The notes beneath the pieces were generated by a model that searched no databases, had not been told where the DNA came from, and saw only the letters and a program-made list of their open reading frames with translations. Positions 3,079 to 61,432 of a stretch of 64,000 bases of DNA are shown here, piece after piece (the first letter of the stretch is position 1; every line of letters starts with the position of its first letter). The stretch comes from Patescibacteria group bacterium (lineage in GTDB: Bacteria; Patescibacteriota; Patescibacteriia; UBA9570): positions 97,300 to 161,299 of the forward strand of contig JAJRVJ010000028.1 in assembly GCA_024277435.1 (NCBI GenBank). Reading direction: 5' to 3'. Both the position numbers and the translations under genes were made by a program.

Positions 3079-4062
3079 ATGGAAAAAGTATTACGCGCAA
3101 TTCAGCAGGGTGAAACCCTTACGCAACAACAAGCTGAAGCTGCAATGGACACAATGATGTCTGGCAAGGCAGATCCTATTCAAGCTGGTGCATTATTAAT
3201 GGCATTAGCAACTCGCGGAGAAACTGCCGATGAAGTAATTGGTATGTTGCGTAGTATGCGCAAGCATATGACCACCATTGATTTAGAAGTTCCGGTATTA
3301 GATACCTGCGGTACAGGAGGGGATGGCATGAATACATTTAACATTTCTACAGCTGTTGCCTTAGTATGCGCCGCTCTTGGTGTGGCCGTAGCTAAACATG
3401 GTAATCGCGCTGCTAGTTCTAAATGTGGTAGCGCAGATATTCTAGAAGCACTTACTATTCCTATTGAGCTGACTGGTGATGCTGCTAAAAAATATTTTTC
3501 TAATAATAATTTTGTGTTTCTTTATGCACGCAAATATCATGCAGCTATGAAACATTTAGCACCTATCCGCAAGGCATTAGGGGTTCGTACTATTATTAAT
3601 TTTCTTGGACCACTTTCTAATCCCGCTCAGGCTAAACATCAGCTTGTAGGTGTATCTGATCCACTAAAAGCTTAAATTATTGGCCAGGCATTAATCGAGT
3701 TAGGTTCGCAACATGCCATTATTGTGTATAGTGATGATGGTTTAGATGAGGCGAGTATTGCGGCACCTACCTCGGTGCTAGAAATGACACCAACCGATAC
3801 GAAGCGCTATCGTATTGAGCCGCGCACAATGTATACCATTGAAGAGATTCGAGGCGGTGATCCAGAGCATAATGCTGAAATAATGAAGCAATTAGCTGAC
3901 GGCAAAGGTTCGGCTGCATTAATTGAAGTGGTGGCAATGAACGCTGGTCTAGCGTTGCTGGCTGCTGACGCTGTATCTTCTTATGAAGAAGGTAAGCTTC
4001 AGGCAGAACAATTATTACGATCACATAAGTTATCTGATATTCTCAATAAAATGCAACAATAA
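3079..4062 (+). pseudogene. trpD: Anthranilate phosphoribosyltransferase (TrpD), interrupted by an in-frame TAA at 3673-3675. Both halves are in the same frame and conserved.
   Basis: N-terminal part carries the GTGGDG motif. ...VGVSDPLKA, then TAA, then IIGQALIELGSQHAIIVYSDDGLDEAS... The stop aligns to the conserved Leu of the VLPIAE region. Confidence 0.75.
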
Positions 4063-6697: not shown

Positions 6698-8476
<1,779 letters not shown>

Positions 8477-8493
<17 letters not shown>

Positions 8494-10249
8494 AGCTAAA
8501 AAAACTGATCCAGTAACACCGCTGGCAAAGCCAATTAAATATTCTATCGCGGTACCTGGTTCAAAATCGTTGATGAATCGAGCGCTTATTTGTGCTGCCC
8601 TTGGTAAAGGGAAGTCTGTATTACGTAATCCAATATATTGTGATGATACGAATTACATGATGAACGCTTTAGAAAAATTAGGCGTACGTATTGTGAAAAA
8701 ACCTAATGCTGTATGGATATATGGTAAAGGTGGAAAGTTTACATCGCCACAGCGGCCATTGCATTTAGGAAATGCTGGAACTACAACCAGATTTCTTATA
8801 CCACTCGTTCCGGCCGGAACTATCGTTACCGGAAACAAGCATATGCAAAAACGGCCCCTTACCGATTTGCTCAAGGCTTTAGAAACATTAGGATATATTT
8901 ATGAAACAGAAACTGGTTGTCCGCCAGTAAAAATAGTTTCACGTAATCAAGCAACAAGTACAATTACCATCAAGGGTACGATGAGTAGTCAGTATATATC
9001 AGCATTATTGATGTTGGCTCCTACATTGCAAAAACGCTTAACCATCAACGTATCTGGTACGTTGGTTTCAAAACCATACGTAGCAATGACACTGCAAGTG
9101 ATGAAGGAATTTGGGATCAAGGTAACCAATAAAAATTTCAAACAATTTACAATTCAACCACAGACATATACTCCAACTACCTATGAAGTTGAGGGTGATG
9201 CGAGTAGCGCAACATATTGGTGGGCCTTAGCCGCTATTAGTGGAAGTACTATTACCGTTACGAATGTTCCTGAAGATACATTACAGCCAGATCGTGATAT
9301 TTTACGTGTGTTGGAAAAAATGGATTGTCGGGTAGAGGGTAATACCGTGATTGGACCAGTTACTTCCCCCAACGCCGTGGAAGTAAGTATGCGGCACATG
9401 CCTGATGCAGTGATGAGTGTGGCAATGGTAGCAGTCTGTGCGCGTGGTACCACAGTATTAAAGCAGATTGCGCATTTAGCAATTAAAGAAACGAACCGAT
9501 TAACAGTATTAGCTGATAATCTCAAGAATCTAGGAGTAAAGGTTAAGGTAACAAAAGATAGAATTGAAATAACTGGCCAGCCTAAGAAGTGGAAAAGGGG
9601 AGTGATTGCTACACACGATGATCATCGGTTTGCTATGGCATTTGGGATACTAGGTTTAGTACAGCCTGGAATTACTATTGATACACCAGCCTGCGTACGA
9701 AAAAGCTACCCAACATTTTGGAACGATCTACGTAGTATTCAGCGCCATAGTAAGGATCAAACCATTGTTCTTACTGGTATGCGTGGCTCAGGAAAAAGCA
9801 CATTAGCCAAACATTTGGCGAAGAAATACACTGCTACGTTAATTGATCTTGATAACGAAATTGAAAAAGAGTTAGGCATGACAATTAATCAGTTCATCGA
9901 TAAAAATCCATCTACGGGCTGGAAGGGCTTTCGTAAAGTAGAACGAGAGCTTACTAAAAAGTTTTCAAATCAAAAAAATACTATCATTGCTACCGGCGGA
10001 GGCACATTGATGTTTGATGAAAATTATGCTATTATAAAGCATAATTACATCGTATTTTTGAATTCACCATTAGCGGTGTTGAAGAAACGATTGGTGCAAG
10101 ATAGCAATAAACGCCCTGCGCTTTTACATGACACGCTTAAAGAATTAGGAAGTATCTGGCAGGAGCGTAAAAGCCAATATTATTTTGTGGCCGACCAAAT
10201 CTTTGACATGTATTACGTACACAAAGATGATCGCAGTTACTTTAACTAA
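8477..10249 (+). CDS. aroA: bifunctional 3-phosphoshikimate 1-carboxyvinyltransferase (EPSP synthase) fused to a C-terminal shikimate kinase
   Basis: 590 aa. EPSPS motifs LHLGNAGTTTRFL and KETNRL. C-terminal P-loop GMRGSGKST with shikimate-kinase-like tail. Confidence 0.85.
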
Positions 10250-14635: not shown

Positions 14636-14669
14636 CTACATCTCTTGTGGATAATTATACTCGTTTTTA

Positions 14670-14698
14670 TTGACACATATTTCTGAATGCGATATGTT
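14670..14698 (+). promoter_or_regulatory. sigma70-like promoter (TTGACA-17-TATGTT) reading into the non-coding region
   Basis: Consensus -35 and 4/6 -10 with 17-nt spacer, directly after the operon end. Confidence 0.35.
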
Positions 14699-15128
14699 GT
14701 TACTAAGTATTATGAATAGTAAAAAATCTTTTAACTTAATCCACAAGATTTGGAACACAACACTCCTCGTGAAGATGGTGTGTGTTTATGTTGTCACTAC
14801 AATTCGACGCACAAATTACGGGTTAAGTTCTATGAGCCATATATAGATTAAAAGATATTAAGGCAAATAACGAACGAAGCCCGCAAAAACAGTGGGATTT
14901 TTTATACGCCTAGACCAGTTTCTGAAACGTTGGAAATTACTCTAGCCGGATAAAACCGGTAAGTTAGCTCTTTACATGTGTATACCATCATTGTTATGCA
15001 ATGGCGATATAACATCAACGTATGGTCAATGAATGCATTGGCCTTATGGCAACGTGATCTTTGATCGTAACCATCTAACTTATATGTTCTTGGTCGCTCA
15101 ATGTATTTATAGTATATATGCATATTGA

Positions 15129-15206
15129 GCGGCTGGGAACCTTAAGCCACATGGAGTGGGCCTTCTTTGACAATGAAGGTGACGGGTTCGATTCCCCTCG
15201 GTCGCA
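15129..15206 (+). ncRNA. tRNA-like element of 78 nt: a 7-bp acceptor stem (two G-U pairs), a canonical T-arm GGGTTCGATTCCC, a discriminator A, and a non-canonical D/anticodon region. It is a degenerate tRNA, a tRNA 3' remnant, or a tRNA-like end of a longer ncRNA.
   Basis: gcggctg (15129-35) pairs with cggtcgc (15199-205). T-arm ACGGG-TTCGATT-CCCCT has one C-C mismatch. The best internal hairpin, ccttc/gaagg, has a 9-nt loop. An intrinsic terminator overlaps the 3' end. Confidence 0.3.
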
Positions 15207-15222
15207 CGAATCGTGCTTTTAT
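15204..15222 (+). terminator. intrinsic terminator (gcacg-aat-cgtgc followed by a T-run)
   Basis: 5-bp GC stem followed by TTTTAT. Confidence 0.55.
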
Positions 15223-15327
15223 AGTGTAGAGAAGAAATCTCCACTATGAAAAGCTTTGAGGGTGGGTACATTCCCACACAGATATTGACTTCGGTCACCA
15301 TCTGTGGAGCACAAGTATCACGTTGCC

Positions 15328-15383
15328 CCCTTCCCAGTGTGTATCTTACTTAATGTAAGTACTAGGTACACACTGTTCAAGGG
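15328..15383. repeat. 56-nt imperfect nested palindrome (ccctt/aaggg, ccagtgtgta/tacacactg, cttac/gtaag)
   Basis: Three concentric inverted-repeat pairs, visible by eye, in an AT-rich non-coding region. Confidence 0.5.
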
Positions 15384-15529
15384 ATTGTATTATCATTACA
15401 ACCATTATGAATTATTCAGGGAAACAACTTATTCTTATTGTGCTTAACCTCGTGATTAATATCACGCTGGGATCTTTATGGTTTAAAAAAGAAATGTAGA
15501 TTGATATTTTCTTCAATAACCCTAAAGAT

Positions 15530-15556
15530 CCCCGCGCGATAAACGTGGGGTTTTTT
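15530..15556 (+). terminator. intrinsic terminator (ccccgcg-cgataaa-cgtgggg followed by TTTTTT) at the left edge of GC-rich island A
   Basis: 7-bp stem including one G-U pair, followed by a T6 run. Confidence 0.6.
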
Positions 15557-15721
15557 CATTTAGGCTAATTCTCTGATCTCCCTCTCCTGAAAGGATGGGG
15601 GTCGGAGGAGGGGTCGATCAATGAATCGGTGGTGCTTATATGAGGCGCCAATAGGGTGCCTCAATAGGCATAAATCCACCAATTGTTCTTTACAGATGAT
15701 GAGTATGCAATACGATTCGAG

Positions 15722-15762
15722 GAAGCGCTGTATGGACTACACCGATGTCCATACAGCGCTTC
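15722..15762. promoter_or_regulatory. perfect 16-bp inverted repeat (GAAGCGCTGTATGGAC-N9-GTCCATACAGCGCTTC) upstream of the island A ORF; candidate operator or 5' leader structure
   Basis: The arms are exact reverse complements. Sits 53 nt upstream of ATG 15815 and is followed by direct repeats gcgcatc(t)gcgcatc. Confidence 0.5.
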
Positions 15763-15814
15763 CCGCGCATCTGCGCATCTTCATCTAACCCCGAAGACCC
15801 CTCAAGGAGGTCCT

Positions 15815-16213
15815 ATGTCGAGCAGCCTGCTCTCCAATCGTCCCGATTTCGCCATGCGCACTCGCGGTGGCCAGCGCCTGGCGTTCCACACCAGCGGTGG
15901 CGTCACCATGGCCTTCAGCCCCGCCACCAGTCAGCCCGTGCGCGCCCGCCTTGTCAGCGAGAAGGGTAACTCAAACGGTTGGCACCTAGTTGGTACTGCC
16001 GAGTTCGATGCGATGGCCACGCTCTACGGGCTGGTCAATGCCTTCGGCTCCTGGTGCCTGCGTGTCGTCCGCTTCGGCGTGGAGATGCTGGTGGACCTCA
16101 CTGCTCGTCACCTGGTGTGTGGTCGCTACGAAGGCGATGACGACTGGGTCAAGCTCGAGGCCGAGGGCTTCTGTGAGCTGGTGCGCGCGTACAACAACAT
16201 GTGCGCCGTCTGA
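15815..16213 (+). CDS. hypothetical protein (133 aa) in GC-rich island A
   Basis: ATG preceded by the strong SD AAGGAGG (7 nt upstream). About 65% GC with GC3-rich codons, unlike the host. A 12-bp GC hairpin follows the stop. Confidence 0.55.
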   Translation: MSSSLLSNRPDFAMRTRGGQRLAFHTSGGVTMAFSPATSQPVRARLVSEKGNSNGWHLVGTAEFDAMATLYGLVNAFGSWCLRVVRFGVEMLVDLTARHLVCGRYEGDDDWVKLEAEGFCELVRAYNNMCAV

Positions 16214-21382: not shown

Positions 21383-23332
21383 ATGTCTGATACCAATCTG
21401 CGTGGGGCCCTCCGTGATGTGGGCTCTGCAAACGCCGTTGCTACGGTTGTGGCGGTTGAGGCGGAAGAACTGCAGCGGAAGTTGCCTAAAGGCACGCTGG
21501 TCGAGCGTCTCTGGCACCAGGTTTTCATGCCGGAAGGCTGGAAGACCAAGGATCTACTGAAGCGCACCATGCCCCTGCTCACCTGGGTCGCCGTGGAGCG
21601 GAACCTGTTCCGCATTTTCGGTAATCCCCAGGCTGCTGCGAAGGCGGTGGCTGCCAAGGCCGCTACGGCGGACTTCGGTGGCTTGGAGTTGGCGGACTGG
21701 TTCCGTTGGCTTCTGCGGCTGTTCGTGCCGCCCAGTTTCGTGTTCGCCTCAATCATCCCGCGGCTGATGCCCAAGTTCAACACCCTGAAGCGAGTCACTC
21801 TCGTGGAAGAAGATGACAACCACGTCATCTATCGGGTGCAGTACATGAACAAGAGCGGTAAGCAGACGCACGATCCTCACGAGGATATGGGTTCCCGTGT
21901 CTGGTTCGAGACGGCCATGACGGCTGGCGCGGCCAAGTACTGGTTCCCAGACGCTGCGCGGGTAGTACACCACGTGTTGGAGTTGGACCTCGTCCAGTAC
22001 CTCCAGCACTTCACTGAGTTCATGCCTGGCACCACCTTCTACCGGTCCGGTGGTACGCTGCGTATGCGCGCTACCGATGCGCGGCCCGACGTCATGGATA
22101 CGGTAGTGGCCACTCAAGTTCAGCTTCGGCCGGATGATGACGGCTTCTACACCGTCGTTGCCACTCAGGAAGACCTGAACATGGGCTTCGACACTCGCCT
22201 TGGCTGGCGGGTGGAGCGTGATATTGCGGCAGTGGACGCCATGGGTGAAACCTGGCAGCCCGTCGCTAGTGGAACGATCTTCTGCGCTGGAGCCAAGTGC
22301 TCGCTCACCGAGTACAACTGGCGTCCGCAGACAATCGCTCTGCGCGCGGTGTTCCGGTTCGCGGTGTTCTGCATCAAGCTGCTCGGTGGAAGCTTCACTG
22401 GCGCCGCTAGGTTGGCCGAAGCCAAGACGAACATGGCTGAGCTGGCTGCCGAGCGTGATAACGCTCTGGGTGACGCCGAGCGTGAACGTGCGCTCCGCCA
22501 GGAGATGGACAAAGATCACTTCCCGACGGAACAGATCGCTACGGCGATGCGTGAGCAGGCGTTCAGCCCGCGTCAGCTCTTCGGAGCGTTGCTGTTCTTC
22601 GATCTCGGCGATAGCACGGCTGCTAACGAGCGTCTTCCGAACTACGCGGATTTGCTCCAGCAGTTCATGGATGCCATCGATGCCGTTATGGTGCGCTACC
22701 GTGAGGGAGCGCGTGAAGACGGTGTCGTAGGATTCACGGTCTCGGAGCCGGGCGATGCTCGCCTCATGATCTTCTCGCGGCGCTGGAATGAGCACCACCA
22801 GACTATGGACGAGGCCGTTGCCCGCGATTAGCTCGCGGTGGCCATTGCGGTGGCCACGGAGATCTTCGCGATCTTCAACCAGGTGTTCAATGTTCCTGGC
22901 GGCCCCAGCTGCGTGCGCATCGGCATTCACTACGGCGAGTTCAAGCTCGATCGCCGTGGTGCCAGCAAGAGCCGTGCTCAGTGTTACGGCGATACCACGA
23001 ACACCGTCGCTCGTTTGGAGGCGGCCGGTAAGTTGCCTGGCGTAGCGGCCGGTGACCTGCGCACCGTGGTGCTGATGGCGAGCGTGGCCGAACTGGTGGC
23101 AGACAGTCACGAGTTCGTGCCGGTCGGCACACAGACCTTCAAGGGTGTCTCCGGACACCATGAGGTCGTGCGGCTGCTGCTGCCTGGTCAGCAGGGCGTT
23201 CGTCGCCTCAAGGACTTCACCGAGGAGATCAAAACCTTGCCGGACGTCGCAATCCAGCAGTTGGGGCCAGCGGACGCCAACCGTGAACTCCTCGACGAAC
23301 TCCTCGATGAGTTCGTCAGCGAAGCAGAGTAG
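21383..23332 (+). pseudogene. Sensor class III nucleotidyl (adenylyl/guanylyl) cyclase: an N-terminal domain of about 390 aa of unknown type, a coiled-coil linker and a cyclase catalytic domain. It is interrupted by an in-frame TAG at 22829-22831.
   Basis: Cyclase motifs FFDLGDST, EPGDARLMIF, VRIGIHYGEF and YGDTTNTVARLE are split across ORFs 21383-22831 and 22838-23332, both in the same frame. About 62% GC. Confidence 0.6.
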
Positions 23333-55594: not shown

Positions 55595-58282
55595 ATGCCA
55601 GATATTACATTTTTTAACATTTCAAAGGAGGATGCTTTTAAAAACCTTGATACTAATGATAAGGGGTTAACTACTAAAGAGGTTACTCGCCGTCAAGGAT
55701 ATTACGGTTTAAATAAATTACCTGAAGAAGCTGCTACGCCATGGTATAAATTATTCATAGAGCAATTCAAAAGCTCATTGGTGTTTATTTTGGTTATTGC
55801 AGCTGGTATTAGCTTTGGATTAGAAGAGCCGGTGGACGGTACTGTAATACTCGCTGCCGTTGTTATTCAAGTGCTCGTTGGTTTTGTACAGGAGTTTCGT
55901 GCTCAGCGTTCGCTAGCTGCCTTAAAGCAAGTTATTTCATTATCAGCTCGCGTATTACGTAACGGAAAAGAAGGGGGTGTTGCTGCGGAAGCTTTAGTGC
56001 CTGGCGACATTGTATTGCTTAGTGCTGGTGATAAGGTGCCAGCTGATGTGCGTTTAATCGAAGTGCATGATTTTGAAGTAGATGAAGCACCGCTTACGGG
56101 AGAGTCTGAGCCGATTAAGAAACAAATAAAAGTGTTAGATAATGATACGGATTTAGCCGAACGCAGTAACATGGCATTTACAGGAACAGTAGCAACGAAA
56201 GGCCAGGCTATTGGTATGGTTACTTTTACTGGGCAGTACACAGAAATTGGAAAGATCGCGCAACTTATAAAAGATACCGAGGATGAGCCAACTCCGTTAC
56301 AAGATAAGCTCACACAGTTTTCTAAAAGAATTAGTATTGTTGTAGTGATAATCGCTGTAGCCATCGCAGTGTTTGGGTACTTCACTCAGGGTGACTTCAC
56401 TACAATGTTTACCGTGGCTGTAGCAGTTGCTGTATCAGCTATTCCAGAGGGATTGGCTGTGGCGGTAACTATTATTCTGGCAGTTGGTATGCAACGCATG
56501 ATTAAACGTGATGCTTTAGTACGAAAATTATTAGCCGCTGAAACCCTTGGTTCTACAAATGTAATTTGTACGGATAAGACGGGAACTCTTACCGAAGGTA
56601 ATATGCAAATTACCGATATTATTACGTGGGAAAATAATTTTGCAGTAGATGGGACAAATACAACGCATGATAAAAATGGTGCGAGGGATTTAATATTTTC
56701 ATTACGCCTTGGATTATTATGTAACGATGCCAAAGTAGATAATATTGAGGACAATATTGGTGATTGGAAAATTTCAGGAAATCTTACTGAACGAGCATTG
56801 TTAATGGCCGGATCACAAGCCGGATTGCATTTTCACGATATTCAAAAAGAGGCGCCACGCATAGACGCAATTCCATTTGATTCTAGTATTAAGTATATGG
56901 CTACGTTGCATCGGGAAGCGCAAGGTAGAATGTTGTATGTAAAAGGAGCTCCAGAAATTATTATCTCTAAATGTTCGAAGGTAATGGCATCTGGCAAGGC
57001 CATCTCTTTTGATAAGGTCAAGCAAAAGAAATTTCAAAAGAAATTTATACAACTCTCTAAACAAGGCTTGCGTATTATAGCGTTGGCGTACAAGAATACA
57101 GGAGAAGCTACTAAAGAAATTACCGATAATACATTATCTGATTTGGTGTTTGTAGGATATGTTGGCATTAAGGATCCGTTACGTAAAGAGGCGAAACAAA
57201 CTGTAGCGCGCTGCCTTGATGCTGGTATTCAAACTGTAATGATTACAGGTGATCATAAGCTAACTGCTCAAGCTATTGCCAAAGAGCTTGGTTTAAAATT
57301 TGATGAGCATAATATCATGGAGGGCAAGGAGTTGGATAGTCTTTCTCAACATGAATTAAACAAGCGTGTGAAAGATATTACAGTATATGCTCGTGTAACT
57401 CCAGAGCATAAATTACGCATCGTCAATGCGTGGCAAGCAAATGACATGGTAGTTGCGATGACAGGTGATGGTATTAATGATTCCCCAGCTATTAAAGCGG
57501 CGGATATTGGTATTGCGCTTGGCTCTGGCACAGATGTTGCAAAAGAAACGGCCGATATGGTTATTTTGGATGATAATTTTGAAACAATTGTTGAAGCCGT
57601 GGAAGAGGGGCGTGGAATATTTGATAATATTAAAAAAACTGTATTGTATCTGTTATCAGATAGTTTTTCGGAAGTGATATTAATTATTGGGGCATTATTA
57701 TTAGGCTTACCAATTCCAATTACTGCAGCACAAATTTTATGGATTAATCTCATCGATGATAGCTTTCCAAGTTTAGCCATGACGCAAGAACCAAAAGAGC
57801 TAGAAAGTATGAAGGAAAAACCGCGTGGTCGTAAAGCGCAAATTTTAGATGGCGAAGTAAAAATATTGATTGTAATTATTAGTGTCGTCACTGGTTTCAT
57901 GAATCTTGCGCGATTCTACTTTGTATATTCTACTACCGGTGATCTTGATTTGGCGCGTACAGTAGTATTCTTATCCTTAGGAATTGATTCATTATTCTAT
58001 ATGTTTAGTGTGCGGTCTATGCGCAAGATGATTTGGCAGAAGAATCTATTTTCGAATAAGTGGTTAATTGGTGCGTTCTTCCTGGGAATTTTATTCCAGG
58101 TAATTCCAATTTACGTGCCATTCTTCCAGAAATATATCAATACGGTTCCACTCGGTTGGGAACAGTGGGTAGTAGCGCTTTCACTATCAGTTGCGGTAAT
58201 TGTGAGTATTGAGACTATTAAATTTATATTCTTGCACGTGCTACGCAAAAAAAATCCAGAACAAGAGTTGCAACGAGCATAA
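55595..58282 (+). CDS. P-type cation-transporting ATPase (type IIA/IIB Ca2+/Mg2+-like)
   Basis: 895 aa. Motifs TGES, ICTDKTGTLT, MITGDH, GDGINDSPAIKAADIGIA. Confidence 0.9.
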   Translation: MPDITFFNISKEDAFKNLDTNDKGLTTKEVTRRQGYYGLNKLPEEAATPWYKLFIEQFKSSLVFILVIAAGISFGLEEPVDGTVILAAVVIQVLVGFVQEFRAQRSLAALKQVISLSARVLRNGKEGGVAAEALVPGDIVLLSAGDKVPADVRLIEVHDFEVDEAPLTGESEPIKKQIKVLDNDTDLAERSNMAFTGTVATKGQAIGMVTFTGQYTEIGKIAQLIKDTEDEPTPLQDKLTQFSKRISIVVVIIAVAIAVFGYFTQGDFTTMFTVAVAVAVSAIPEGLAVAVTIILAVGMQRMIKRDALVRKLLAAETLGSTNVICTDKTGTLTEGNMQITDIITWENNFAVDGTNTTHDKNGARDLIFSLRLGLLCNDAKVDNIEDNIGDWKISGNLTERALLMAGSQAGLHFHDIQKEAPRIDAIPFDSSIKYMATLHREAQGRMLYVKGAPEIIISKCSKVMASGKAISFDKVKQKKFQKKFIQLSKQGLRIIALAYKNTGEATKEITDNTLSDLVFVGYVGIKDPLRKEAKQTVARCLDAGIQTVMITGDHKLTAQAIAKELGLKFDEHNIMEGKELDSLSQHELNKRVKDITVYARVTPEHKLRIVNAWQANDMVVAMTGDGINDSPAIKAADIGIALGSGTDVAKETADMVILDDNFETIVEAVEEGRGIFDNIKKTVLYLLSDSFSEVILIIGALLLGLPIPITAAQILWINLIDDSFPSLAMTQEPKELESMKEKPRGRKAQILDGEVKILIVIISVVTGFMNLARFYFVYSTTGDLDLARTVVFLSLGIDSLFYMFSVRSMRKMIWQKNLFSNKWLIGAFFLGILFQVIPIYVPFFQKYINTVPLGWEQWVVALSLSVAVIVSIETIKFIFLHVLRKKNPEQELQRA

Positions 58283-58392
58283 AAATTGACCAGATGCGTA
58301 ATACGCGATAAGCTTCTCGATACTTTATACGCCTCGGGGGAGTGCGTATATGTTTGACATTTTGGGTACAGCTTCATACAAGGAGCTGAAAA

Positions 58393-58716
58393 GTGCCTAC
58401 ACCGGAACGTCCGGCGGTGCTGATTCATTCAGCTACCGCAGAAATATACGAGTTCCTGCCAACTCGTGATCGGCAGCGGCGACAAGACTCTCTCGCTCAG
58501 TTACAACTACTCAAGCAGCTGCTGCAGCGCCTCACAAGCAACGACATTACTCTGTCGCGTGCAGGGGAGTTGATTGTGAGACCCAACTTGGCGAGGCGCC
58601 GGCTGAGGGAGAATCCTCATAATCTGACGCACTACTGGGCAGCACGCTATAGTCGCTGCACTAACTGGGCTATGCTGCAATATGTTTTGCGCCTGTGCGC
58701 ACTATGCCCGGCATAG
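58393..58716 (+). CDS. hypothetical protein (107 aa), first ORF of GC-rich island C
   Basis: SD AGGAGC followed by GTG. GC-rich codon usage. Preceded by TTGACA-like promoter 58345-58375. Overlaps the next ORF by 22 nt in another frame. Confidence 0.4.
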   Translation: MPTPERPAVLIHSATAEIYEFLPTRDRQRRQDSLAQLQLLKQLLQRLTSNDITLSRAGELIVRPNLARRRLRENPHNLTHYWAARYSRCTNWAMLQYVLRLCALCPA

Positions 58717-58901
58717 ATCATTTGGTTGGCGAGTTGAATCGGGCTGGTCATCCGTTGCGTGAGCAAGTGCGACGCGCTCGGTTTGCTACTGATGTGCGCA
58801 TGCTACTCGCTGCGACGCGTCGCCTTACGGAGGCGCACCACCCGGCTGGAGCTGGTAGGCTTGTGGCTTGGCTCACTGGAGCTAAAGTGGAGGTGCCGTA
58901 G
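58695..58901 (+). CDS. hypothetical protein (68 aa), overlapping partner of the preceding ORF (possible two-gene module or frameshifted single gene)
   Basis: GC-rich ORF. Followed by hairpin cttggag-tag-ctccaag (58902-58918). Confidence 0.35.
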   Translation: MRTMPGIDHLVGELNRAGHPLREQVRRARFATDVRMLLAATRRLTEAHHPAGAGRLVAWLTGAKVEVP

Positions 58902-58977
58902 CTTGGAGTAGCTCCAAGAATGTTCAAGCGCCTTCTGAGTTCATCCCAGAACTTAGAAGGCAATAGGACAATACTCA

Positions 58978-59076
58978 TTGACTTTTTATTAAAATATAGT
59001 ACACTCGTGGCGCCTGTTAATTAGGCGTTCTTTACAATTAGGAGGAATTATCGTGAAGTTGAACGTATACTCGTAG
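58978..59076 (+). promoter_or_regulatory. promoter TTGACT-16-TACACT, then imperfect IR ggcgcct/aggcgtt, strong SD AGGAGG and a 7-codon mini-ORF (GTG-KLNVYS-stop, 59053-59076); candidate leader-peptide control region for the 176-aa ORF
   Basis: Hexamers at 58978-83 and 59000-05. SD 59040-45. GTG 59053. TAG 59074-76. Confidence 0.35.
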
Positions 59077-59194
59077 GTCACGGGTGCGGCAAATAGTGTG
59101 GTTTATACATGCGCATTACTTGCTACATCCGTGGCCACAAAAAAGAGTGGAGACGCTCTGATCTGTGTATCCCCCAAAAAAAGGTAGGTAAGTC

Positions 59195-59725
59195 ATGAGC
59201 ACCCCGCTCAGCATCATTCTCGGCAACTCTGTTGTCGGCCCCATCGTTCCCGTCCGCGTCGTCGAGACCGTGGATCCGCGGGTCTCGATTCACTTCAAGG
59301 ACGGCATCGTCCTCAACCTCGTCGGCCTCACCGCCGAGGAGCGCGATGGCTTCGACGAGACCGGGATCAACTGGCACGACGACATCGAGGACAGCGGAGC
59401 GCTGCTCCACCGCGACATGGGCGTCCTGTTCGACCGCAGCGGGATGACCAACCTGCGGCAGGGCGGTGAGCCCCACCCCGACCCCCGTGTTCGCCAGCAG
59501 GACTGGCAGAACACCGTGAGTTCGGTTACCGTCACCACGGGCGCCGGCCCCTACGGGCTGCTGGTGGCCCTCTGCGCCGCCGGCTGGGGACCCGCCATCA
59601 GCTCCCGGATCGACGTGGTCGGCCACATGCGGATGGCCGTGGGCAGCCGGGACTCCGCAGAGCTGGCCCGCTACGTGGGCGGGGCCTTCCGCTCCAGCGG
59701 ACGGAAGTACGTCCGGGTCGCCTAG
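59195..59725 (+). CDS. hypothetical protein (176 aa), GC-rich island C
   Basis: ATG with upstream AGGTAGG. About 65% GC. Followed by GC hairpin 59764-59802. Confidence 0.5.
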   Translation: MSTPLSIILGNSVVGPIVPVRVVETVDPRVSIHFKDGIVLNLVGLTAEERDGFDETGINWHDDIEDSGALLHRDMGVLFDRSGMTNLRQGGEPHPDPRVRQQDWQNTVSSVTVTTGAGPYGLLVALCAAGWGPAISSRIDVVGHMRMAVGSRDSAELARYVGGAFRSSGRKYVRVA

Positions 59726-59856
59726 AGCGCGCTGAAGAAGCGCAGGATCTACGGTTCAACTTCACGCCCCCTTCAATCGTGTATGCGAGGGAAGGGGGAA
59801 CGTGATCTTTCTAGATTAGATAAATAGTCTACAGAGAATACGTAAAATTTGCAGAG

Positions 59857-59884
59857 TTGACATATTCATAATTTTCCCTAAATA
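59857..59884 (+). promoter_or_regulatory. sigma70 promoter TTGACA-16-TAAATA upstream of the 60-aa ORF
   Basis: Consensus -35 and A/T-rich -10. Confidence 0.4.
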
Positions 59885-59892
59885 GTCGCGTT

Positions 59893-60075
59893 GTGCATTA
59901 CAACATAGTGAAGCGTCCCGCTGGCCTTCCGATAAAACTTCTCATGCAGCGGGTCTTCGGGCCGCTGGCGAAGGGAGATCCCCTCAAGCGAGACGTCGAG
60001 AAGAGGCGCCTAGGTAAGGTCACCCGCAACATGACCTCCGCCCTCAACACCAGTCGAGGTCTCCAGGAACTGTAA
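59893..60075 (+). CDS. small basic hypothetical protein (60 aa)
   Basis: GTG-start ORF, moderately GC-rich, between island C and asnS. Confidence 0.3.
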   Translation: MHYNIVKRPAGLPIKLLMQRVFGPLAKGDPLKRDVEKRRLGKVTRNMTSALNTSRGLQEL

Positions 60076-60136
60076 TTATTCCTAAATATTACACATGATA
60101 ATTGACGCATTAGGTAAGACTCCGTACAATACGCAT

Positions 60137-61432
60137 ATGAAGACAGTATTATTACGGGAATTATCCCAACACGTTGATAACGAAGTCACCATTCAAGGTT
60201 GGATGTTTAATAAACGTTCATCCGGTAAAATTTCATTCTTACAGGTACGCGACGGCAGTGGTGTCACGCAAGCCATTGTGAATAAAGCTGATGTTGAAGA
60301 ATCAATATGGAATTCGGTAGATACGTTAAATTTAGAATCATCTGTACGTATCACCGGTACAGTATCAAAGCATCCTAAGAAAGAAGAATATGAATTACAA
60401 GTTTCAGGATTAGAGGTAATACATAATGCGGCTCCAGATTTTCCAATTGGGAAGAAAGAACATGGTCCAGATTTTCTCTTACAGAATCGTCACCTATGGT
60501 TACGATCACCCCGGCAGTGGGCGATACAACGGATTCGTAATACCATTATTAATGTAACGTACGAATATTTTAATCAAAACGATTATATTAAAATTGACGC
60601 TCCGATATTTACCCCAACTTCTTGCGAGGATTCCACAGAGTTATTTGAAGTAGAATATTTTGATGAAGGTAAAGCGTACTTAACACAATCTGGTCAGCTC
60701 TATATTGAATCTGCGATTTTTTCTCATGGAAGAGTATTTGATTTTGGCCCTGTATTTCGTGCAGAGAAATCTAAAACCCGGCGTCACCTTACCGAGTTTT
60801 GGATGATGGATGCCGAAGCCGCCTTTGTAGATTTTGAAGGTAATATGGATATTCAGGAGGCGTTAATGAAATACATCATAGAAAAATCGCTACGTGAAAA
60901 TGCCTATGAATTAAAGGTACTTGAACGTGACGTAGAAGCATTAAAGAAATGCCTAGAACCATTTGTACGTATTACACACGAAGAAGCGGTTAAAACCCTC
61001 CAAGGCTTAGGTAGTGATATTAAAGACGGTGAAGATCTCGGTGCAGATGATGAAACGATGCTTACACAGCAATATGATTCACCGGTATTTGTTACGCACT
61101 GGCCGGCAGCAATTAAAGCCTTTTATATGCAGCCCGACCCTAACGATCCCACCAAGATTTTAGGATCCGATTTATTAGCACCTGAAGGGTATGGAGAAAT
61201 TATTGGTGGCTCTGAACGTATTCATGATTATGATTTGTTAGTGAAGAAAATGGAAGAGTTCAATTTACCACGAGAAGACTACGAATGGTATTTAGATTTA
61301 CGCAAATATGGCTCAGTTCCGCATTCCGGATTTGGCTATGGTTTAGAACGTATCACCGCATGGATTTCTGGCACAAAACATATTCGGGAAACCATCCCGT
61401 TCCCACGCATGATTAACAGAATTTATCCATAA
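60137..61432 (+). CDS. asnS: asparaginyl-tRNA synthetase (class IIb)
   Basis: 432 aa from ATG 60137. Motifs FRAEKSKTRRHLTEFWMMDAE, GSVPHSGFGYGLER. Confidence 0.85.
   Translation: MKTVLLRELSQHVDNEVTIQGWMFNKRSSGKISFLQVRDGSGVTQAIVNKADVEESIWNSVDTLNLESSVRITGTVSKHPKKEEYELQVSGLEVIHNAAPDFPIGKKEHGPDFLLQNRHLWLRSPRQWAIQRIRNTIINVTYEYFNQNDYIKIDAPIFTPTSCEDSTELFEVEYFDEGKAYLTQSGQLYIESAIFSHGRVFDFGPVFRAEKSKTRRHLTEFWMMDAEAAFVDFEGNMDIQEALMKYIIEKSLRENAYELKVLERDVEALKKCLEPFVRITHEEAVKTLQGLGSDIKDGEDLGADDETMLTQQYDSPVFVTHWPAAIKAFYMQPDPNDPTKILGSDLLAPEGYGEIIGGSERIHDYDLLVKKMEEFNLPREDYEWYLDLRKYGSVPHSGFGYGLERITAWISGTKHIRETIPFPRMINRIYP

Follow-up and report, generated by a model that had tools for sequence, protein, structure and literature searches.

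The DNA considered here is a 64-kb window (64,000 nucleotides of contig JAJRVJ010000028.1 of a Patescibacteria group bacterium; all positions without a genome label are those of the window), in which a segment of deviant base composition, island C, lies between the genes for a P-type ATPase and asparaginyl-tRNA synthetase (AsnRS). Island C is probably the window copy of a clade-specific accessory locus, in which GC-rich cassettes encoding two protein families, denoted p290 and p176, occupy a fixed slot between the ATPase and AsnRS genes and are enclosed by brackets that appear to pair at the RNA level. This reading is grounded in direct observations, namely the two families, the synteny of the slot, the decay of the window p290 gene, the anatomy of the spacers, the fast evolution of the proteins and an equilibrium at GC-rich synonymous sites. 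Deviant base composition is routinely taken as a mark of recent horizontal transfer, and the initial annotation of this DNA had described island C as a foreign-composition insertion that carries a toxin-antitoxin (TA)-like pair of open reading frames (ORFs) and a leader-peptide attenuator. The rise in GC content, the ORFs, the hairpins and the promoter-like boxes that it listed are all in place; of its interpretation, the alternative of a single frameshifted gene and the conserved start of the leader hold, whereas the foreign insertion, the TA pair and attenuation do not.

The ATPase-AsnRS slot and its protein families

The window has an overall GC content of 39%, with genes mostly on the plus strand. 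The shift in composition that had been noted at the outset begins directly after the ATPase stop codon at 58282. From there to the AsnRS gene it comprises three GC-rich blocks, each about as long as an ORF (55-75% GC): GC content is 0.54-0.63 at 58400-58950, 0.65-0.75 at 59200-59750 and 0.55-0.59 at 59900-60050, compared with 0.37-0.41 in the two flanking genes (0.38 is reached again inside AsnRS). The spacers between the blocks are AT-rich (0.39-0.46 GC) and carry strong hairpins and promoter-like sites, 7 of which are found in the island region against 1.5 ± 1.2 in shuffled sequences. The features of island C are the following.

58286-58314, plus strand: promoter-like TTGACC-N17-TAAGCT, 3 nt past the ATPase stop codon, at the conserved position of the p290-cassette promoter
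58393-58716, plus strand: ORF1, 107 amino acids (aa), remnant of p290 repeat domain 2 (match to the p290 hidden Markov model, HMM)
58695-58901, plus strand: ORF2, 68 aa, remnant of p290 repeat domain 3 in another frame (p290 HMM match)
58902-58970, plus strand: two stable hairpins after the p290 remnant, at 58902-58918 (cttggag-tag-ctccaag, as first reported) and 58921-58970
58978-59005, plus strand: promoter-like TTGACT-16-TACACT upstream of the p176 leader (9/12 matches)
59040-59076, plus strand: conserved leader with AGGAGG (59040-59045), 5' bracket arm CGTGAAGTTGAAC (59052-59064; 13/13 complementary to its 3' partner) and a 7-codon mini-ORF (59053-59076)
59076-59136, plus strand: long leader hairpin HP3, from the mini-ORF stop to the p176 ribosome-binding site (fold energy)
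59195-59725, plus strand: ORF176, intact p176-family gene of subtype c (GC content at third codon positions [GC3], HMM, homologs and AlphaFold2 [AF2] model)
59752-59847, plus strand: conserved trailer element, with 3' arm, hairpin HP1 and AT-rich palindrome-like hairpin (covariance model R1)
59857-59886, plus strand: promoter-like TTGACA-18-AATAGT (10/12 matches)
59893-60075, plus strand: ORF60, GC-rich block (58% GC, GC3 0.71), an unverified ORF
60102-60130, plus strand: AsnRS promoter TTGACG-17-TACAAT at the right edge of the island, with the same sequence upstream of AsnRS in the related genome L089

Contigs carrying the locus were obtained from two NCBI metagenome-assembled genomes (MAGs) and several independent Logan assemblies, and the same slot is occupied in at least eight related genomes. 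It is present across the genomes denoted L081-L090, at core identities of 75-94%; core protein identity is 75-77% between the window and the others and reaches 94-98% among the others. Every p176 contig that is long enough to display the flanks has the gene in the ATPase-AsnRS slot, where it is equally GC-rich. On contigs of sufficient length, the gene order is PLDc_N protein (minus strand), small membrane protein, P-type ATPase, p290 (~290 aa), one or two p176 genes and AsnRS, followed on the longer ones by AspRS, DUF2330 and ScpA/B, and in all assemblies the cassettes are found in one orientation. In the more distant genomes of the candidate phyla radiation (CPR) L002, L070 and L077, the ATPase gene directly adjoins AsnRS and the locus is missing. 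The shared slot together with this absence implies a gain within the clade, the window being only one of the places where the locus occurs. The AsnRS, AspRS and ATPase of the window are most similar to proteins from Patescibacteria/CPR MAGs (AsnRS identity at most 76%); exact-sequence look-ups of window proteins returned no match, and a DNA-motif scan yielded 120 loci, all of them chance matches in high-GC contigs that contain neither p290 nor p176. A literature search retrieved general reports on Patescibacteria genomic islands, none of them on this locus or on a maintained GC-rich gene class.

ORF176 is a real, intact gene of a tiny ORFan family, p176. The initial annotation had recognized no motif in its product, which stands, and the codon-position GC signature (GC1/2/3 of 0.68/0.48/0.91, compared with a GC3 of 0.31-0.32 in the neighboring core genes) identifies it as a genuine coding sequence of the high-GC type. 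In a HMMER scan of 1.84 billion representative proteins, ORF176 itself and two others, P0002 (E = 9e-31) and P0003 (E = 1e-10), were the only true relatives, and a profile search of 5.8 billion clusters enlarged the family, which is confined to this locus in about eight related CPR genomes, to seven clusters. The p176 HMM built without the window sequence retrieves ORF176 at E = 1.3e-30 and matches no other of the window's 987 stop-to-stop segments. The paralogs are just 30-39% identical and fall into subtypes a, b and c, distributed as c in the window and L081, c and b in L088, a and b in L082, and a in L083 and L087, with no p176 gene in L089. The coding strand of ORF176 contains 0.36 C and 0.33 G, so that the GC skew is near 0; an adenine-depleting mutagenesis of the kind produced by diversity-generating retroelements was considered and dropped, A and T being about equally frequent on this strand.

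The p290 proteins are basic and Arg-rich (isoelectric point 9.5-10.8, ~10) and consist of three ~90-aa beta-beta-alpha4-beta repeats. Six p290 clusters were found worldwide, every one at this locus (5.8e9 clusters and 1.84e9 representative proteins searched), and no homologs were detected in viral contigs or Joint Genome Institute (JGI) metagenomes. The structure predictions and profile searches that the initial annotation had proposed gave confident AF2 models for both p290 and p176 (for ORF176, a predicted local distance difference score of 75.5 and a predicted template modeling score of 0.78), and PDB profile searches with the island families returned only noise (E > 0.09). A Foldseek comparison of p176 with viral structures and a scan of viral contigs for p176 yielded no match, and the island proteins, ORF60 included, have no significant match in Pfam, PHROGs, PADLOC or NCBIfam, in agreement with the original statement that none belongs to a recognizable family. 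The locus thus adds two protein families without known sequence or structural relatives, together with the covarying non-coding element and the gene-bracketing pairing motif described below.

Both families evolve fast. Between L083 and L087, the nonsynonymous divergence (dN) is 0.20 for p290 and 0.26 for p176, compared with 0.01-0.06 for core genes (roughly 3-20-fold); the ratio of nonsynonymous to synonymous divergence (dN/dS) of ~0.3-0.55 in the cassettes indicates that p290 and p176 are still constrained proteins. The public gene calls within the cassettes are antisense at L081 4331-4966, L088 4673-5137 and L090 2703-3221, and because of this the protein databases lack one p290 gene and two genes of the p176 family; for annotation purposes, gene callers choose the wrong strand within these cassettes.

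Spacer anatomy and putative pairing of cassette ends

The spacers follow a common order: a promoter-like box, a 5' arm (GTGAAGT...), in p176 cassettes a long leader hairpin and a ribosome-binding site, then the gene, a 3' arm (...ACTTCAC), hairpin HP1 and an AT-rich palindrome. The stop codon of the ATPase gene is adjoined or overlapped by a TTGAC(T/C)-N16/17-TAAG(A/G/C)T box in 7/7 genomes (window, L081, L083, L087, L088, L089 and L090), and the TTGACT-16-TACACT box of the initial annotation is found ahead of the window p176 leader. In 11 of the 14 cassettes, the best complement between the 5' and 3' flanks, sought without bias, is the GTGAAGT/ACTTCAC core motif, with stems of 8-17 bp. The 5' arm lies 100-146 nt upstream of the gene, or directly next to the start codon in subtype b, and the 3' arm follows 12-48 nt downstream of the gene. 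The extensions of the arms are specific to the class of cassette and match within each cassette: the arms are GTGAAGTCAG/CTGACTTCAC in p290 (TCAG/CTGA), GTGAAGTTGT/ACAACTTCAC in p176 of subtypes a and c (TTGT/ACAA) and GTGAAGCT/AGCTTCAC in subtype b, and in the window CGTGAAGTTGAAC is paired with GTTCAACTTCACG (59754-59766), the extension being TTGAAC/GTTCAA. The six positions beyond the arm core comprise 60 Watson-Crick, 10 G-U, 1 A-C and 7 other combinations, the random expectation for Watson-Crick pairs being 25%. The class-specific, matched extensions are compensatory changes.

In all seven leaders of a/c-type p176 genes, which are homologous, AGGAGG precedes a GTG-AAG-TTG start; AGGAGGAAAGTGAAGTTGTTA is kept in those of L081, L082, L083, L087, L088 and L090. 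These leaders carry AGGAGGAAA and GTGAAGTTG, followed by a very long hairpin and the ribosome-binding site; hairpins equivalent to HP3, of ~30-40 bp, were found in L081, L083 and L087 (z from -3.4 to -7.4), and the window segment 59052-59197 folds at -49.8 kcal/mol (z -4.3). The p176 gene itself uses this AGGAGG in subtype b, and the p290 leaders have the GTGAAGT arm without a Shine-Dalgarno (SD) sequence.

The trailer consists of the 3' arm, TCACG, hairpin HP1, CGTGATCA, the AT-rich palindrome and TGATCACG. In the window, HP1 spans 59762-59805 (TCACG...CGTGA) and is followed by the AT-rich palindrome-like hairpin at 59806-59837; the whole trailer folds at -38.3 kcal/mol (z -6.4). Across the 13 aligned trailer copies, the TCACG/CGTGA pairs never vary and 8 other pairs have changed on both sides; HP1 comes in two sequence classes that share one shape. 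Covariance model R1, which represents these 13 copies, finds the trailer element behind every cassette and has a sole window match, at 59752-59847 (55 bits, E = 2.6e-10). No copy was found elsewhere in the 64-kb window, including two further GC-rich islands, A and B, nor in 11 more distant relatives, and Rfam has no match at E ≤ 1 within 58200-60200 (in the whole window, the only match at the gathering score is a tRNA-Lys). The bracket stems of islands A and B, and of other GC-rich genes of the relatives, are almost all within the range of a null derived from core genes; the initial grouping of island C with islands A and B is accordingly not upheld. The stem of a 103-aa ORF in L081 reaches only the maximum of this null and has an unrelated motif.

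G-U pairs outnumber A-C mismatches 45 to 6 in the trailer, which points to pairing in sense-strand RNA, and the sequence comparison as a whole argues that bracket arms and trailer pair at the RNA level on the sense strand. The processing stems of rRNA operons and phage mRNAs are RNase III substrates, and long near-perfect hairpins are typical double-stranded RNA substrates of this kind. By analogy, the brackets could be likened to such processing stems in that 5' and 3' complements, which would pair over hundreds of nucleotides, surround a long functional RNA, with covarying arms that tolerate G-U pairs; unlike them, the stems here are short (8-17 bp) and enclose protein-coding genes, and any cleavage by RNase III would be hypothetical.

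The inverted repeats could instead be recombinase or transposase sites of cassettes that are mobile or invertible at the DNA level, akin to mobile insertion cassettes (MICs), miniature inverted-repeat transposable elements (MITEs), integron cassettes, Xer/dif-type elements or invertons, and such sites would explain the variable content of the locus. We consider this unlikely. The matched inverted repeats of every cassette, with their class-specific ends, would fit such a mechanism, as would the number and type of cassettes, which vary by genome (a; c; a and b; c and b; none in L089), the extra cassette with a duplicated promoter in L081 and the quasi-palindromic spacers. However, G-T exceeds A-C by 10:1 in the extensions of the arms and by 45:6 in the hairpins of the trailer, which points to sense-strand RNA; no target-site duplications flank the arms; R1 has no copy elsewhere in the window or in the 11 more distant relatives; and the orientation is the same across all assemblies. 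Moreover, no integrase or transposase family, intI included, is present among the Pfam-annotated genes within ±10 kb of five loci, a survey that did not extend to whole genomes. With integron cassettes the locus has in common single-gene, mostly ORFan units of non-host composition with structured inverted repeats and variable number, but here the repeats flank the gene, in place of one attC site 3' of it, and promoter-like boxes precede the cassettes. The terminal inverted repeats, as matched arms of 8-17 bp in 11/14 cassettes, resemble those of MICs and MITEs, from which the locus differs in lacking target duplications, dispersed copies (the motif and R1 are found at this locus only) and a nearby transposase.

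Probable maintenance of GC-richness in the cassettes

Cassette genes have a GC content of 0.59-0.70 in all genomes and a GC3 of 0.76-0.92 in most copies (0.67 for the p290 gene of L089), whereas core genes in every genome have a GC content of 0.39-0.41 and a GC3 of ~0.32. The synonymous divergence (dS) of core genes exceeds 2 between the window and its relatives, that is, it is saturated, and is 1.0-1.4, near saturation, in the closest trio. Comparisons were therefore made at fourfold-degenerate sites of conserved codons. At these sites, identity between the p176 genes of the window and L081 is 0.51, against 0.50 expected from composition, and yet the GC content of the sites is 0.86 and 0.94, respectively. 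Among L083, L087 and L088, the excess fourfold identity is 0.21-0.31 for p290 and 0.20-0.32 for its two flanking genes, ATPase and AsnRS; because these values are equal, the cassettes have diverged in step with the chromosome. The 18 polarized fourfold changes in p290 include 14 exchanges between G and C, 2 changes from strong (G or C) to weak (A or T) bases and 2 in the opposite direction, so that gains equal losses and there is hardly any of the mutation class that should prevail in a genome rich in AT. Sites that are saturated and still GC-rich, together with the balance of the two directions, exclude neutral amelioration under vertical descent, and an ancestral GC relic with slow amelioration was dropped on the same fourfold-site results.

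These substitution patterns suggest that the composition of the cassettes is actively maintained by selection or GC-biased conversion and is not the signature of a recent transfer. The lower GC3 of the broken window p290 gene (0.55-0.58, with 0.58 in ORF1) and of the L089 gene, compared with 0.79-0.88 in most intact p290 genes, fits this interpretation, the former gene probably drifting toward the AT-rich composition of the genome. Selection for mRNA structure, RNase resistance or translation rate are possible causes of the kept GC.

A recent horizontal insertion of one to three pieces from GC-rich donors, whose composition the island would have retained, appears improbable in this light. Such an origin would be in keeping with GC and GC3 values typical of high-GC bacteria, with the absence of the locus from more distant relatives, with the occurrence in the window of other GC-rich islands (A and B), whose genes are unrelated, and with the ordinary GC-rich enzymes that L006 carries in the same neighborhood, which look like plain horizontal gene transfer (HGT). 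Against it stand the occurrence of the same two families in the same slot in at least eight genomes with saturated core synonymous sites, the synonymous divergence of p290, which equals that of its neighbors, the equilibrium indicated by mostly G-C exchanges with equal gains and losses, the AT-rich spacers with common motifs that co-occur with the cassettes, and the lack of a donor family in billions of proteins, viral contigs or JGI metagenomes. The notion of a recent and unique insertion is thus largely refuted: the anomalous composition stands, but the same GC-rich locus exists in at least eight relatives and co-diverges with ATPase and AsnRS. Atypical composition, ORFans and absence from more distant relatives are features of ordinary genomic islands as well, for which GC deviation has been treated as a fading mark of transfer in Patescibacteria (PMC12455944). 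The locus differs from such islands in its vertical co-divergence within the clade, in the lack of amelioration despite saturated synonymous sites, and in having no mobility genes, no tRNA or significant direct repeats at its borders and no identifiable donor. It therefore represents a caution for island-calling methods, being deviant in composition without recent transfer, and offers a clear example from nature in which selection or biased conversion at synonymous sites can be studied in symbionts with tiny genomes.

The nearest analogue of island C with respect to composition is the vls system of Borrelia, the cassettes of which have ~49% GC in a chromosome of ~28.6% GC, which the authors attribute to strong selection that maintains GC (PMC11499132). 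In both cases, the G+C content of the locus is far above that of an AT-rich genome, and inverted repeats accompany fast-evolving paralogous coding cassettes. Unlike vls, however, the locus has no array of near-identical (~90%) silent cassettes and no expression site, its paralogs being 30-39% identical; strong GC skew, which is high in vls, is lacking; the proteins are unrelated and have no obvious signal or lipoprotein sequence; and the GC contrast is larger (GC3 of 0.9 vs. 0.32), with no evidence of gene conversion found.

The locus could have evolved as follows. It would have been gained once in the clade ancestor and then inherited in place, with cassettes gained, lost and swapped through recombination, and its GC-richness would be held by selection or GC-biased conversion on the cassettes, not left over from transfer. 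Each cassette would constitute its own transcription unit with its own mRNA, the ends of which would pair, much as in the processing stems of rRNA, through the bracket arms adjacent to HP1; this pairing would set the processing, stability or translation of the message, with the start of the mini-ORF inside the stem. Covariation and substitution patterns point to the transcription units, the end pairing and the maintenance of GC. As for the proteins, charge, evolutionary rate and patterns of presence and absence hint that p290 might bind nucleic acids, with p176 as its partner, in a fast-changing conflict or host-interaction role, although these assignments are rather doubtful. Among accessory loci specific to a lineage, this one is an unusual variant that has apparently not been described before, and its maintained composition is puzzling. 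Tentatively, it might represent an undescribed class of Patescibacteria cassettes in which a GC-rich synonymous equilibrium is combined with mRNAs closed by co-evolving 5'-3' stems and a dedicated 3' hairpin, as an expression or insulation module for fast-evolving, new-fold conflict or host-interaction proteins.

Several considerations weigh against the overall reading of island C. The fourfold parsimony counts are small (18 changes), and recurrent replacement from an unsampled GC-rich pool would give the same saturated GC-rich sites, although no trace of such a pool was found. The closest pairs differ between the ATPase (L087-L088, 94%) and AsnRS (L083-L087, 98%), so that recombination across the locus does occur. 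RNA-level pairing rests on covariation in ~8 genomes and the G-U bias. The window stem scores 13.0, compared with 8.5 ± 1.35 and a maximum of 12 among 35 core genes; taken singly, this stem thus stands out only slightly, and it is conservation that carries the argument. Finally, the spacer is quasi-palindromic, with minus-strand R1 matches of 16-45 bits, which leaves room for DNA-level roles as an operator, cruciform or recombination site. As a separate observation, the conflict between the closest pairs of L083, L087 and L088 implies that a recombination breakpoint lies within the cassette locus or close to it.

The decayed p290 gene, the leader mini-ORF and neighboring features

The GTG start of ORF1 follows an SD-like AAGGAG, and ORF1 overlaps ORF2 by 22 nt in a different frame, as originally described. 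An HMM built from the p290 proteins of 6 relatives and searched against all 987 segments of the window matches exactly two of them, the frames of ORF1 and ORF2, in colinear order: the ORF1 frame matches at 58390-58713 (E = 2.1e-7; profile positions 103-181, domain 2) and the ORF2 frame at 58665-58898 (E = 2.1e-9; positions 216-284, domain 3). ORF2 also matches a single-domain p290 HMM (E = 4e-15), and its C-terminal motif RLVAWL...VEV corresponds to RLVEWL...VRV of p290. In the window copy, domain 1 is deleted, ~35 profile positions are gone at the ORF1/ORF2 junction, the frame is shifted and the flanking bracket and trailer motifs are lost. The two hairpins at 58902-58970, which fold jointly at -34.1 kcal/mol (z -6.1), occupy the position of the trailer; the ACTTCACG motif is lost there, and R1 has no match. 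ORF1 and ORF2 are fragments of one p290 gene, likely a pseudogene or at best a truncated derivative, and should be marked as a single pseudogene; the frameshifted single gene that had been listed as an alternative is thereby borne out by the colinear profile matches. A type II TA family was examined as a candidate for the pair and rejected, with only sub-threshold Pfam and PADLOC noise (best E of 0.018-0.055) and no PHROGs match.

The mini-ORF encodes GTG-K-L-N-V-Y-S-stop and lies behind its SD sequence 118 nt upstream of ORF176, close to the ~120 nt first reported. Across the p176 leaders, the peptides of this ORF have 5, 7, 17 or 26 codons and share only the residues M-K-L, the codons of which coincide with the bracket arm. 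The short ORF with a ribosome-binding site upstream of the p176 gene is reminiscent of a leader-peptide attenuator, but conserved peptide or codons and alternative hairpins with a U-tract are lacking here. Thus, of the proposed leader arrangement, the SD sequence and the GTG-AAG-TTG start persist in 7/7 homologous leaders, whereas the peptide is not conserved and no U-tract terminator or antiterminator accompanies it; the mini-ORF is better regarded as belonging to the 5' bracket arm, where it may be a regulatory start or the fossil of one, than as a peptide of an attenuator. Likewise, each unit had been credited with its own terminator, but the hairpins notwithstanding, no T-tailed intrinsic terminator was found on the plus strand of the island.

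That ORF1 and ORF2 form a TA or translationally coupled pair, and the mini-ORF a classical attenuation leader peptide, is very improbable on this evidence: the 22-nt overlap with its SD-like sequence, and the strong SD sequence before the mini-ORF with a long hairpin after it, would suit such a scheme, but the two ORFs are colinear pieces of one p290 homolog without a significant match to a TA or defense family, the mini-ORF peptides of 5-26 codons have only M-K-L in common within the bracket arm, the p290 leaders contain GTGAAGT without an SD sequence, and the leader has one long hairpin and no U-tailed terminator. There is next to no probability that the locus is an artefact of chimeric metagenome assembly or of chance ORFs in GC-rich non-coding DNA, which does yield long ORFs on both strands (a 167-aa antisense ORF in the window; wrong-strand gene calls in three relatives), since the architecture is common to independent assemblies from at least eight samples or MAGs and is accompanied by strong codon-position periodicity, protein conservation down to E = 1e-30, dN/dS < 1 and confident AF2 folds; this explanation is already refuted for ORF176 and ORF1/ORF2 and could apply to ORF60 and the mini-ORF only.

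ORF60 had been placed behind a promoter of its own. The ORF and a TTGACA-18-AATAGT box exist, but nothing supports ORF60 as a gene: none of the related loci contains a homolog, and the p290, single-domain and p176 profiles do not match it. The block may be a relic of a lost cassette.

Other GC-rich genes occur near the slot in the relatives. In L081, an extra GC-rich 103-aa ORF (GC3 0.82) lies at 3339-4051 between the ATPase and p290 genes, with a TTGACT-N17-TAAGAT promoter on both sides. GC-rich ORFan genes (GC 0.64-0.65) are located between AsnRS and AspRS at L083 12292-13137, L084 4093-4812 (minus strand) and L087 6701-7288 (minus strand); they have no Pfam family and no bracket motif, and the corresponding gap in the window is 150 bp. 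In L006, GC-rich segments just upstream of AsnRS (7200-9950) encode ordinary-looking enzymes of 331 and 512 aa and resemble plain HGT.

In the window itself, the large ORF of island B (21383-23332, plus strand) is a single frame that an in-frame TAG at 22829-22831 divides into 482 + 167 codons. An adenylate/guanylate-cyclase catalytic domain (PF00211, E = 1e-5; weak PycC match) spans the TAG, so this ORF is a pseudogene or a read-through gene. Island A (14636-16213) contains a GC-rich ORFan with a likely start at ATG 15815 (132 aa), downstream of a 1-kb ORF-free stretch; within the latter, GGTTCGATTCC at ~15150-15215 resembles the 3' end of a tRNA or transfer-messenger RNA (tmRNA) (Rfam tmRNA partial match, E = 0.086) and may be the remnant of an old integration site. 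To the right of island C, the AsnRS ORF was listed from 60095, but its homologs align from about residue 14, and the likely start is ATG 60137, behind the promoter at 60102-60130.

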